Positions 39,875-55,695 of a DNA stretch of 64,000 bases are shown here, piece by piece (position 1 is the stretch's first letter; each line of letters starts with the position of its first letter). The DNA lies in the NCBI GenBank assembly GCA_964016885.1, contig OZ024745.1:37386001-37450000 (forward strand), read 5' to 3'. Below the pieces are notes generated by a model, which was not told where the DNA came from, ran no database searches, and saw nothing but the letters and a program-made list of their open reading frames with translations. The position numbers and the translations under genes were made by a program. Source of the stretch: Eledone cirrhosa (lineage: Eukaryota).

Positions 39875-40071
39875 AACGAAGGTGGTGTGGTAATGCACCA
39901 GATGGACCATAACGCACCAGAGTACTCAATACTTAGGGTAGTAGAGTGGGTAATAGTAAAATGTAAGACCTCGACGGCAGAGCTCAAGCCGTTTCGACGG
40001 CTATTTCTGAACACTCCAGAAATAGCCGTCAAAACGGCTTGAGCTCTGCCGTCGGGGTCATACATTTTCCT
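39875..40071. mobile_element. About 195-bp hairpin element (family F) next to TA
   Basis: Palindrome about 39953-40073 containing GAAACGGCTTGAGCTCTGCCGTC; same family as 43875, 49391 and 55501. Confidence 0.88.
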
Positions 40072-40364
40072 ATATATATATATATATATATATATATATA
40101 TATATATATATATATATGCCTGCACCACTCCTTTCAGGTGAATAATTCATATTGCTCGCAAACAAATATACACTCATATACACGTATATAGTCTATACAT
40201 ATAGTCTCTCTCCCTATATATATATGTGTGTGTGTGTGTGTTTGAATATGTGCGTATGTATATATACATATATGCATATATATATATATATATATATATA
40301 TGTGTGTGTGTGTGTGTGTGTGAATATGTGCGTATGTATATATACATATATGTAAAAGGAGAAA

Positions 40365-40625
40365 GACACCTTTTGGTCACAAATGACCACGAATTTGCAT
40401 CTAGAAAATTCCCCTCCGAGGCAAGTTTGTTTGTGGAAGACCACCAGTCACCCATACGTACCAGTCTCCTATCCATGCCACCGATGTTATCCAAGGCAAA
40501 GGCCATGACCGATACAGCTTGGCCCCAGTGACGTTACAACTCATTTCTACAGCTGAGTAAACTGAGACTACGCGAAATAAAGTGTCTTGCTCAAGGACAC
40601 AAAGCATCACTCGTTCCGAGCATCG
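40365..40625 (-). mobile_element. CORE-like SINE
   Basis: GAAATAAAGTGTCTTGCTCAAGGACAC; homologous to 54195-54510. Confidence 0.75.
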
Positions 40626-40793
40626 ACGTCACACACACACACACACACACACACACACACACACACACACACATATATATATATATATATATATATATAT
40701 ATAGTGTATTTTGCAATACACTGTATGCTTAATTAAAAGCATTTCGAAGACCTTTCGCTATTGTTTTATAGTGACAGTCTCACTTACTTTAAA

Positions 40794-40886
40794 TTTTCAG
40801 CAAACAAGGGAGATAAAGCTGGCAGAGCTCTGTTTCGTACTTTTTGGTACTTATCAAAGCTGAGTACTCCACCTGTTTGCTGAAAA
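40794..40886 (-). ncRNA. Type I HHR motif, U3-A8 core, cleavage triplet mutated (GCC)
   Basis: AGCU-UUGAUAA-GUAC(CAAAAA)GUAC-GAAAC-AGAGCUCU-GCC-AGCU. Confidence 0.7.
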
Positions 40887-41113
40887 TCATGAATGTTTGA
40901 TTCTTATAGAATTCTAGTAATAATCAGGAACTGATTATACAGAGCGGTTGCCGGTCAAGCAGAAATTGAAAATTAGAACTGGTGCTCTGAAATAGCGATA
41001 TATATATGAATGTATATATAGTGTATTTTGCAATACACTGTGTGCTTAATTACAAGCATTTCGAAGACCTTACGCTATTGTTTTAGAGTAGTGACAGTCT
41101 CACTTACTTTAAA

Positions 41114-41206
41114 TTTTCAGCAAACAGGGGAGATAAAGCTGACGGAGCTCTGTTTCGTACTTTTTGGTACTTGTCAAAGCTAAGTACTCCACCTGTTTGC
41201 TGAAAA
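41114..41206 (-). ncRNA. Type I HHR motif, U3-A8 core, best-preserved copy
   Basis: AGCU-UUGACAA-GUAC(CAAAAA)GUAC-GAAAC-AGAGCUCC-GUC/AGCU; long stem I UUUUCAGCAAACAGG(U)GGAG pairs with CUCCCCUGUUUGCUGAAAA. Confidence 0.8.
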
Positions 41207-41309
41207 TCATGAATGTTTGATTCTTATAGAATTCTGCTTGACCGGCAACCGCTCTGTATAAACAGGTCCTGATTATTACTAGAATTCTATAAGAACCAAA
41301 CATTCATCA

Positions 41310-41402
41310 TTTTCAGCAGACAGGTGGAGTACTTAGCTTTGATAAGTACCAAAAAGTTCGAAACAGGACTCTGTCAGCTTTATCTCCCCTGTTTGCTGAA
41401 AA
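41310..41402 (+). ncRNA. Type I HHR motif, U3-A8 core
   Basis: UUGAUAA at 41339-41345, GAAAC, GUC at 41373-41375; one stem II mismatch. Confidence 0.75.
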
Positions 41403-52792: not shown

Positions 52793-52864
52793 AGCTCTCA
52801 CGCAAATATTAATAATGATTTCATTTATTAGCCACAAGGGTGCATGACATTATTGACAATATAT

Positions 52865-53160
52865 TTGTTTCTACTTTTAGGCACGAGGCCAGCAATTTGA
52901 ACAGGAGGATAAAGTCGATTAAATCGACCCCATTGCGTGTCTGTTGGACAATATAATGATGAAATACAACACAAAGTTGGGTTTACCTCGAGTAAAGAGA
53001 AGGAAAAATAATAAGGATTTCTGATTTAGATACAAGGCAAACAATTTTGAGGGAGCGGAAAGTCGATTAAACCGACCCAGTGCATTACTGGTACTTTACT
53101 TTATCGACCACTGTAAGAATGAAAGGCAAAGCTAACCTCAGTGGGATTTGATCTCAGAAG
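52865..53160 (-). mobile_element. Nin-domain-like SINE fragments
   Basis: Family motifs. Confidence 0.75.
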
Positions 53161-53177
53161 GTTAAGGGAGGTAACGG

Positions 53178-53870
53178 CTAATTATCGCCACTACGGTCAA
53201 AGGATATATACTCCAATTGTGGCCGTGAACCGACCGCATCAAGGCTCCTTTTGAATATGTCGTTCAAAGCGGTGTGCCGTTGGAACTGATATGTACTGTA
53301 GCAACAAGAGAGCTTATGTAATCCAAACTCATCGACTGATATTCTACAATGGCATATGTTATTTATATACATGGAGGTTAAATTGCATGGCCACGTGGAT
53401 GCACGTGAACTCATCATCAAGTGAGGTACCTGTTGATAAAGAGGGCATTCAATTGAGCGAATCGTCACTGTCTGGCGGCGAGGAAGATTTGAGCCTTGTG
53501 CCGGTTAAATTGCATCTGATTTCGTCTGTGTTGCGTTGGTAAGTGAGACCATCATCATATTAAGTTCCTGCTGTTTAGCAGAGAATCTCGTAGATGAGGC
53601 CGCGGCTGAAGATAATTGAGGAAAAGTAGGCTAACAGCGCCAGATTAGATTTTGGTCGGAGGCGGAAGCCAGCGAACTTCACGAGAGTTTCGCCTGTTAC
53701 CAGCCTGTATCGTCAAAGTTGACATTAGGTGTGAATTCGACGCACTAACTGATGATGACATCATATTCACTTGGGCGACCCACATGAAGGTGATAAGGCG
53801 AACTACGCAGGGAAACTAGAAGTCTGGGGAGGAAATGTGCAGGAAATTAAATTGTTTTTATTACTTTGAC
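53178..53870 (-). pseudogene. CRE-clade non-LTR retrotransposon remnant (RT thumb to zinc knuckle and start of RLE)
   Basis: LPRLLVSLRSSP...NVNFDDTGW*QAKL..KFAGFRLR..LALLAYFSS and CHC..VDEFGLHKLSC...RHTALNDIFKRSLDAVG..LE...DRSG. Confidence 0.75.
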
Positions 53871-54194
53871 TTGTGCCCACTTTTCAGGGCCTCTGAGACT
53901 GGTTGAAAGGAGATACACTTCATACACTGAAGTCCTGGACCGAATATTTATAATGTTGTGAGTCAGGCAATGGACAAAATCAACAATCCAAAAATTACAT
54001 CTACAATTGAAGTCTACCATATAAAACTTTTATCTACTCCCAAAATTGAGTCTTCCACTCAATTCATGTCTACTACACATAATCAGTTTGCCACAATACG
54101 TGTGTACAATATACATGAATTATATTAGCATACTTTATGTATAATATACATATAAGTAAAAAAAAAATTACGCGTTTATATATATATGTTTTTC

Positions 54195-54510
54195 TTTTGG
54201 TCAAGAATGACCATGTGATTTCCACCTAGAATGGTCCCCTCCGAGGCGCAAATCTGAGCAGGCTTGTTTGTGGAAGACCAACAGTCGTCTATGCACACCA
54301 GTCTACACTCACCACGCCACCGATGCCCAAGGGAAAGGCAATGGCCGATACAGCTTGGTACTAGTGATGTCAGAACTCATTACTACAATTGAGTAAAGTG
54401 GAGTAACATGAAATAAAGCGTCTTGCTTGAGGACACAACGCATCACTTGGTCCGGAAATCGAGCTCATCACCTGACGATTGCAAGCCCAATGCTCTAATC
54501 ACAAAGGCAT
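54195..54510 (-). mobile_element. CORE-like SINE
   Basis: Homologous to 40365-40625; B-box remnant on -. Confidence 0.75.
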
Positions 54511-55500
54511 ACACCTTCATTCAACTATATATATATATATATATATATATACAGTATATGTATATATATATATGTGTGTGTGTCTGTGTGTGTATGAAAG
54601 AGTATCATCACTAGATACTTCATGTACGTGTGTATAGAATGAAAAAAAAAACCTCACATTTTATTTATTTTCTTTTTCCCCGAAATAAATAATGTTTCGT
54701 CTTTGTCTTTTCTACTTTGTGTTCGTGGAGGCGGGCGAGGGGTGTGTATGTGTGTCGAGGATTGGATTCTGGCCACGGGTCATCAGCCACGCATTCATGC
54801 GGATATAAAACCAAATTCTAGACATATTTACCTACGTAGGTCACGTGCCATCAATAGACGCTCCCTCATCTTAAATATCGTCATCAATGTCACGGCTTGC
54901 ATCAGTTTCCGGTTAGTTAAGGATGTGAGGGTGCAGGGGGAGGGATGGATGGATGGTTGGTTGGTTGGTTTAGCTTTTGATGGTGGCGGTGACGGCGGCG
55001 GTGCTGGTGGTGGTGGTGGTGGTGATGTGATGGTTGGGTGGAGGGATTAGTGATGCTGGTGATGCTGGCGGCGGTGGTGGTGGTGGTGGTGGTGTTGTAG
55101 GCGGTGTGGATGGTTGGGTGGAGGGATTAGTGACGCTGGTGGTGGTAGTGGTGGAGGTGTGGAGGAGGAAGTGGTGTTTAAATATGTCGCATACACGCTA
55201 ACAATTACACACACATACACGAAACAACACACATTCACGCGCATACACAACACACACAAAAACTCACGCACACACACGCCAGGCATATAATACACATAAA
55301 GTGTTATATAGTCTTGCACAGACATGGCTGTACATATAAGTACATATATATTTATATTTATCTTGTGTGTGTATGTATGGAGGGGGGGGGGGGTATATTC
55401 AAAATTACATAGACACACAGACAACTATATTATACTCACACACACACACACGCACACACACACACACACACAACCATATATATATATATATATATATATA

Positions 55501-55695
55501 TAGGAAAATGTTTGACCCCGACGGCAGAGCTCAAGCCGTTTCGACGGCTATTTCTCTATTAAGAAATAACTGTCGAAACGGCTTGAGCTCTGCCGTCGGG
55601 GTCAAACATTTTCCTATTACCCACTCTACTACCCTAAGTATTGAGTACTCTGCTGCGTTATGGTCCATCTGGTTCCTTACCACACCTCCTTCGTT
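55501..55695. mobile_element. Family F hairpin element in (TA)n, opposite orientation
   Basis: Palindrome about 55500-55616 with tail to TTCGTT at 55695. Confidence 0.88.

Follow-up and report, generated by a model that had tools for sequence, protein, structure and literature searches.

The window analyzed here is a stretch of 64,000 nucleotides from the 3.0 Gb genome assembly of Eledone cirrhosa (G000:C5:37386001-37450000). It contains four intact copies and one decayed copy of a short palindromic repeat, termed Family F, at the places indicated by an earlier note made from the sequence alone (Table 1). All five copies sit in (TA)n and carry the 3' half of a hammerhead ribozyme (HHR) without its 5' core, as had been proposed. 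Positions are counted in nt from the predicted HHR cut after GUC, which is set to 0, and the short and long outer ends of a palindrome are denoted as S and L. In the four intact copies, the S end (+17) reads TTCCTA/TA and the L end (+97), 80 nt beyond, reads TTCGTTA/TA; the two fixed ends with TA microhomology described in the earlier note are thus present. A blastn search of the window yielded four L-arm matches with 88–100% identity, and the decayed copy was matched at 28728-28769 (79.5% over 44 nt, E 5e-5). A 25-nt exact pattern of the HHR 3' half has 44,497 matches genome-wide, while the reversed control has 0, and Family F therefore lies far above chance.

Table 1. Family F copies in the window and parts of the copy at 55501.
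Feature	Coordinates	Strand	Description
Family F copy (L001)	55501..55697		Inverted S arm 55501-~55556 (minus), L arm ~55562-55697 (plus)
Hammerhead 3' half	55575..55597	+	GAAAC, 5-bp stem III, 9-nt loop, GUC; predicted cut after 55597
Stem I 3' strand and 'tail' of the Penelope-like element	55598..55697	+	S site TAT 55615-55617, L site TAT 55695-55697
Family F copy, CTACTCG subfamily	43875..44074		L arm (minus) at left, S arm (plus)
Family F copy, ATACATT-type	39875..40073		L arm left, S arm right; arm ends -40/-41
Family F copy	49391..49545		L arm stops near +5, S arm reaches -41
Decayed Family F copy	28656..28786		Remnant L arm left, S arm with hammerhead 3' half right

The copies differ in how their arms meet. 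In copy 55501, both arms end near -36 and are separated by a 6-nt insert, and TAT is common to each of its terminus sites and the (TA)n target. In copy 43875, the arms end at about -41 with one additional base between them. Copy 39875 has several substitutions between its arms; three arm–arm differences were counted by eye in the mirrored segment, and one in copy 49391. The arms of copy 49391 are joined via a 3-nt overlap (AGT), with neither arm contained in the other, and this copy is not a stem-II palindrome, as its L arm already ends near +5.

Family F derives from a Penelope-like retroelement (PLE) of 3-3.5 kb that has Hydra-clade motifs, and it is the commonest form in which this element has inserted. 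Its arms grade continuously into a PLE with a reverse transcriptase (RT), and the tail region continues into the 5' untranslated region (UTR) and open reading frame (ORF) in full elements. Three of the first 30 related loci are non-inverted, and a search with their upstream sequence revealed 30 more loci with a long 3' UTR and then an endonuclease frame. One locus (L137, 4179-9372) is a whole natural insertion, comprising an inverted truncated copy with an L end, a pseudo-long terminal repeat (pLTR), the tail, the ORF, a second pLTR, and an S end. The single ORF encodes RT motifs followed by a C-terminal YIG domain, and the parent protein contains RWR, DKT (HSDKTG), FDIESYY, YRDDG, CxCX5C (CNCPDRSIC), YIG, CxxC, and CxH. 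Its endonuclease end reads CNLC..E..N..CKH, in which CxxC and CxH flank E and N. Together with partial tandems that serve as pLTRs, the inverted 5'-truncated copy, the one-sided tail, and the hammerhead inside the pLTR, this organization is that of an endonuclease-containing (EN+) PLE. The motifs agree with those of the Hydra clade in the text of PMC8557442, with RWK present as RWR, and the insertion in (TA)n is likewise a Hydra-clade feature; here and below, published work is represented by the passages used from each cited source. The unit measures 3.54 kb in young tandems and 3.0 kb in L137, a locus with deletions, and it exceeds the Hydra-clade norm because of the long 3' UTR. A protein search for longer relatives retrieved two unnamed proteins with 38-41% identity, a PDB sequence search gave 0 matches, and a single-sequence AlphaFold model had a predicted local distance difference test score (pLDDT) of 33, too low for use.

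We counted 342 exact matches of a pattern that spans the L site and enters the 5' UTR; some of these lie in tandem, spaced by 3.53–3.55 kb. The frame is open over all 499 visible codons in 8 of 30 loci spanning the L site, four of which lie in one array. A 141-nt ORF segment was 100% identical in 40 of 40 scored matches, and one subfamily is therefore very young. Arrays of 3-4 tandem units of this subfamily, 3.53-3.55 kb apart, occur at G000:C1:91.47-91.49 Mb (L304-L307), C1:437.20 Mb, and C2:320.55 Mb, and the units at C1:91.47 Mb with long open frames are candidate source elements. Selenocysteine at the first linker cysteine, considered from a TGA in L328, was rejected as private to one of nine young copies.

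The complete parent hammerhead (YUGANRA...GAAAC) has 2,125 exact matches genome-wide. Among the first 100 listed, inspection by eye counted 89 UUGANAA, 11 CUGANAA, and 0 CUGANGA cores, with position 7 being any of the four bases and A8 fixed. The earlier note had expected longer copies to carry the missing half as CUGANGA. The missing half is indeed present in longer copies, but a literal CUGANGA test would have failed because that half is UUGANAA, with a U3-A8 pair. This core covariation is already known in PLE hammerheads (PMC4209133), and the C3-A8 (CUGANAA) forms may be inactive or in another register. A minimum free energy fold of a young natural copy places predicted stems I, II, and III around the core, and the core, G10.1-C11.1, and the three modeled stems correspond to a type I hammerhead with predicted ribozyme activity. 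The hammerhead region folds no better than shuffled sequences (z about -1). An Rfam scan of the window placed no hammerhead on Family F among the matches listed (150 of 194), and its HH9 matches belong to another family. At five loci (L064, L111, L123, L098, and L107), arms end at most 4 nt from the predicted ribozyme cut; these few cases may represent cleaved RNA templates.

The two outer ends are combined in a highly uneven manner. Palindromes with centers of 18-48 nt comprise 12,387 S-L, 117 S-S, and 104 L-L cases genome-wide (12,608 in total; 98% S-L), with the symmetric classes counted on both strands, whereas independent site choice would yield a 1:2:1 ratio. Five of 33 inspected L-L palindromes extend past the L site and are hence false L-L. 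For an unbiased sample, we took the first 100 pattern hits on C1, requiring only -23 to +2 to be intact, and 79 of them could be classed. A script assigned 57 two-armed S-L palindromes, 1 S-S palindrome, 7 single short arms, and 14 long copies with the core; by eye, the same sample comprised about 56 S-L, 0 S-S, 9 single arms, and 14 long copies with the core, two of which seem to form a single inverted insertion of 3.3 kb. Among 99 arms, 51 end at L and 48 at S. Non-inverted copies terminate at the same two sites, and S and L are therefore each a priming site in its own right; each end overlaps the (TA)n target by TAT. The equal terminal inverted repeats and fixed interior of a miniature inverted-repeat transposable element (MITE) are not seen, as the ends differ by 80 nt in 98% of cases. 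Non-LTR retrozymes are defined by head-to-tail tandem units that each carry a complete hammerhead, whereas the arms of Family F are head-to-head and lack the 5' core. The proposal in the earlier note that a retro-process produces MITE mimics is thus upheld, with a PLE as the parent, unequal ends, and varied centers. The stubs are mistakable for TA-targeting MITEs in annotation.

Considering these features, Family F very probably consists of very short inverted 5'-truncated PLE insertions, in which two cDNAs were likely primed on both (TA)n strands and likely joined head to head. By analogy with an anole PLE studied in vitro, a dimeric protein would cut both strands and prime each 3' end internally on RNA, with one strand at each site. 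The template RNA for both arms would come mostly from one source. Both arms stop at -34 to -48, often with an A-run after the stop, and we lean slightly toward the cDNAs having run off the 5' end of a linear RNA that is abundant and starts at about -41 to -44, an end that is possibly a transcription start. End-joining would then unite the two cDNA 3' ends, across overlaps of 0-4 nt or with short templated inserts. For long and tandem insertions, the template would belong to a second class, namely RNA in circular or multimeric form, which has no end at -41.

The upstream stop is sharply localized. Of 91 arms reaching -34, 75 end by -48 (5.5% per nt), while farther upstream, from -91 to -290, two of ten arms stop, and stops scored at -89/-90 are possibly alignment failures. 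S-L palindromes with longer centers are fewer (1,269 at 49-79 nt and 205 at 80-110 nt), and many of these owe their length to inserts rather than to longer arms. In 266 arms (133 palindromes) from subfamilies with a known parent, the mode is -41, where 46 arms stop, against 8 at -42; this set omits 25 of 158 palindromes with C-type parents or very short centers, and much of it was ascertained with a limit on center length. Runs of at least five A on the cDNA strand start directly after -41 in 17 of 21 cases, and in L382 and L387 each arm has a separate A-run. At least four T precede AGTCC in 16 of 236 arms, compared with 0 of 30 parents. The stop is also seen where the partner arm is far shorter or absent; it is a property of the individual arm, with each arm halting independently. 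The inversion lies 11-25 nt upstream of GAAAC, with a mode of 18 nt, close to the 15-20 nt given in the earlier note. That note had the cDNA stalling or snapping back in stem II, but the stop lies farther on, where loop II begins beyond the 3' strand of stem II. Its further claim that the palindromes always form just upstream of the 3' half describes a strong hot spot but not a rule, as the 14 long arms with core among the 79 sampled matches and copy 49391 are exceptions.

Long copies behave differently at this hot spot. Among the 30 loci spanning the L site, 16 extend at least 1.4 kb downstream and reach -34, and none of them stops there, whereas four of five shorter loci do. The contrast of 0/16 with 75/91 gives p=5.5e-9 with one tandem array counted once. 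A fixed stall at every pass is therefore unlikely. A simple start of a single transcript predicts full-length copies beginning at -41, and since none are seen, the two-template step was added; the observations suggest two kinds of RNA template. The sequence at -41, TYAGTC, resembles an initiator (Inr). Internal promoters and Inr-like motifs are described in other PLE pLTRs (PMC2377424, PMC3846280), and PLE RNA circles have been proposed (PMC4209133). At the junctions themselves, the center of L390 (G000:C1:157589416-157589589) contains about 2.5 TTAGGG repeats, as if a telomeric repeat had been added onto a free cDNA end, and in the centers of L364, L370, L375, and L388, 10-14 nt of the arm end have been re-copied several times in tandem, which suggests repeated slip-back synthesis.

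A different origin of the stop retains priming on two strands but attributes the halt to a first-pass road-block, formed by the PLE protein on the folded hammerhead (stem II and the loop II hairpin) and gone in complexes that get through once. The predicted fold has an inner hairpin within loop II, and the stop does fall at its 3' base; in addition, the anole HHR folds and cleaves solely with protein bound (PMC11167929). No full-length copy starts at -41, as such a block would allow, and in a second PLE family of the window several arms end within or just 5' of the hammerhead in a similarity-ranked sample of 30. On the other hand, the absence of second-pass stops excludes a constant stall of about 82% per pass, and the sharp 5' edge at -41, where the A-runs begin, is poorly explained. 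When RT halts, the 3' strand of stem II is already behind it, and the loop II hairpin is weak, in a region with no folding advantage over shuffles. We regard this road-block as the less likely reading, though still a reasonable competitor.

Whether one cDNA or two underlie a palindrome bears on self-priming, in which one cDNA or an antisense RNA snaps back and the second end attaches via TA microhomology. This was the model of the earlier note and is near the self-priming hypothesis of PMC3846280, where head-to-head junction palindromes are read in this way. After subtraction of overlaps in 118 palindromes, the junction is symmetric within 3 nt in 65, as snap-back would give, but the S arm is deeper by at least 3 nt in 24 and holds sequence that the L arm lacks; the L arm is deeper in 29. 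The -41/-35 junction was seen 8 times in one orientation and 4 times in the other. In five of the approximately 56 two-armed insertions (L065, L066, L093, L112, and L114), the L arm ends at +47 to +73 while the S arm reaches -37 to -42, with no sequence common to both arms. Snap-back of one cDNA is disfavored because either arm can be deeper, and an L-primed fold-back cannot give a deeper S arm; an S-primed single cDNA cannot supply the tail. Further points against self-priming are the non-inverted copies ending at both sites, the separate A-runs on both arms of L382 and L387, and the differing subfamily types between the arms of L094 and L117. Self-priming is thus largely refuted unless later deletion accounts for the asymmetry, and we consider it improbable.

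The subfamily composition is relevant to the source of the two arms. In 136 palindromes compared over 49 nt, the two arms of one copy differ at 2.4 positions and arms of different copies at 6.2. Arm pairs with common types belong to the same subfamily in 95 of 100 cases, compared with 17% expected, an agreement that snap-back would also produce; two of the five exceptions reflect CpG decay, and mixed-subfamily pairs are few. The CTACTCG type alone occurs in 54 of 272 arms. The earlier note held that each copy's private variants are mirrored in its own other arm. The variants it cited are subfamily markers, and a rare variant is shared between the arms in 3 cases, against 113 in which one arm alone has it. 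Its statement that palindromes form anew in each copy, with differing centers, is well supported by 135 distinct centers among 158, and by 25 among 28 in young subfamilies, where nearly all are different. From the centers, the subfamily sharing, and the rare-variant counts, it follows that the palindromes form at insertion from one source subfamily, with the mirrored variants not being private. A true MITE or non-autonomous unit re-copied whole would be short, TA-flanked, and inverted, as the 12,387 copies are, and would fit the few recurring centers, but re-copying is refuted as the main route and extremely improbable, given the distinct centers, the recurring junctions in both orientations, the unequal ends that are not terminal inverted repeats, and the arms that grade into a PLE with RT.

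Several observations weigh against priming on both strands from an RNA that starts near -41, or against the placement of its parent. No full-length copy starts at -41 among the 16 long copies or in L137, L138, and L141; L150 (=L301), which had appeared to be such a copy, was rejected since it ends about 100 nt downstream. If the RNA carried a cap, G might be expected beside -41, and the 22 free bases there include 10 G, 8 C, and 4 A, where a fair null is about 1/3 G; the Fisher p=0.009 rests on an unfair null and is not relied on. In vitro, the start sites of the anole protein do not differ between strands (PMC11167929), which does not explain the 98% S-L rule. Use of one RNA molecule by both arms is weakly supported: S-S and L-L palindromes are just modestly more discordant than S-L ones, at 9/68 against 4/96 (p=0.04) and 5/47 against 2/77 (p=0.10). 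Later deletion could partly create asymmetric arms, although this leaves the separate A-runs and the mixed-subfamily pairs L094 and L117 unaccounted for. Membership in the Hydra clade is assigned by motifs rather than by a tree and is thus putative, and a Pfam search with ten proteins gave one RVT_1 match below the cut-off (E=0.003) and three unrelated weak matches. An obligate asymmetric twin priming, in which a dimer would use the near site of one RNA for one target strand and its far site for the other, is put forward only tentatively. It would be combined with two RNA classes, namely a linear half-ribozyme transcript starting inside loop II, whose run-off would give the Family F stubs, and a ribozyme-cut circle or multimer as the source of full and tandem copies.

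In LINE-1 twin priming, both target strands prime on the RNA and the inversion is joined by microhomology. LINE-1 inversions have non-overlapping arm pieces, one poly(A) end, and one variable site. Family F, by contrast, has two fixed sites and an arm overlap of about 58 nt. Another parallel is Poseidon of Anolis carolinensis (PAc; Frangieh et al. 2024, PMC11167929), whose protein cuts and extends both strands at an AT-rich target and is a predicted dimer, with two internal RNA start sites that define the tail. PAc belongs to another clade, however, and the passages of that paper report no target homology, compared with the TAT overlap here, and describe no upstream stop. The Penelopes of Adineta vaga (Arkhipova et al. 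2013, PMC3846280) similarly have head-to-head inverted pLTRs, junction palindromes, and a tail on one pLTR, where it is optional, as well as an Inr-like motif in the pLTR; they differ in their low copy number, their visible target duplications, and the self-priming on an antisense template invoked for them. The minimal hammerheads of the Schistosoma Cercyon PLEs (Cervera and de la Pena 2014, PMC4209133) share U3-A8, a long helix II, and a short helix I with the parent ribozyme. Their motif pairs, 100-700 bp apart on opposite strands, were read as truncated PLEs. The helix III of Family F is 5 bp long and closed by a 9-nt loop, and the 5' half is missing from most of its genomic copies.

Within the Hydra clade (Craig et al. 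2021, PMC8557442), which includes Hydra-1_Obim of Octopus bimaculoides, units are generally <3 kb and tails are typically 30-40 nt, whereas those of the present family are 3.0-3.5 kb and 80 nt. The hammerhead motif of Hydra-1_Obim is CUGAAGA, in contrast to the U3-A8 core, long stem II, and 5-bp stem III found here, and the passages of PMC8557442 do not mention two-armed stubs with a fixed stop, the form of most copies here (150-200 nt). According to the same paper, the PLE tail is often confined to one of the two ends, and the literature already contains inverted, truncated PLE copies whose tail is one-sided; the one-sided asymmetry of PLE ends is thus known in words. A retrozyme preprint (10.64898/2026.07.22.740005) reports Hydra solely in a coral among its species, and its passages are silent on such palindromes. 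In the PLE passages covered, which include the supplement of PMC8557442 but mostly not early Penelope work or Arkhipova 2006, we found no numeric rule of one short and one long end and no fixed upstream stop; other supplements could hold similar structures. We class Family F as a new family in a known clade; its kind of insertion structure is known as well, but it provides an unusually clean dataset for separating published mechanistic ideas.

The window contains further elements. A second short palindromic family occupies 28818-29001, with one S and one L end and a tail of 66 nt; its longer genomic copies carry a minimal hammerhead whose core is CUGAGGA, and several arms stop inside this hammerhead or slightly 5' of it. 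At 29054-30361, a 619-nt perfect inverted repeat contains an HH9-like hammerhead (CUGAUGA) in each arm and an internal partial tandem, with the short end at the left and a tail of about 72 nt at the right; it is likely a third, very recent PLE family. Unequal ends are thus also present in these two other HHR-bearing families. In contrast to Family F, the 267-nt element at 12086-12352 resembles a true MITE: it lies between TA runs, and its terminal inverted repeats are equal. CUGANGA...GAAAC has 7 matches in the window against 0.6 expected, and the additional motifs at 28443-28467, 62057-62081, and 22507-22551, all on the minus strand, are probably other PLE ends. Directly after copy 55501, the region 55730-55900 contains hairpins and a GAAAC motif on the minus strand and may be another PLE end. 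The long low-complexity trinucleotide-type repeat at 51415-52549 (repeat families D10, D12, and D13) is possibly a mucin-like coding sequence.

Both PMC8557442 and PMC11167929 describe it as an open question how PLEs come to have inverted repeats and a tail on one side. With more than 12,000 independent minimal insertion products, Family F constitutes a large natural record of likely PLE insertion, and its stubs reveal that the two ends are nearly always different (98%) and that both arms halt at one place. Self-priming, proposed in PMC3846280, fits this record poorly. For annotation, searches limited to CUGANGA are a trap, since they miss the parent ribozyme. Direct tests could make use of the young subfamily, whose frames are long and open and whose ORF segments are identical. 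If true, asymmetric twin priming with two RNA classes would account jointly for the tandems, the inverted pLTR, and the tail on one side, and it could be tested in this subfamily, which is apparently active.

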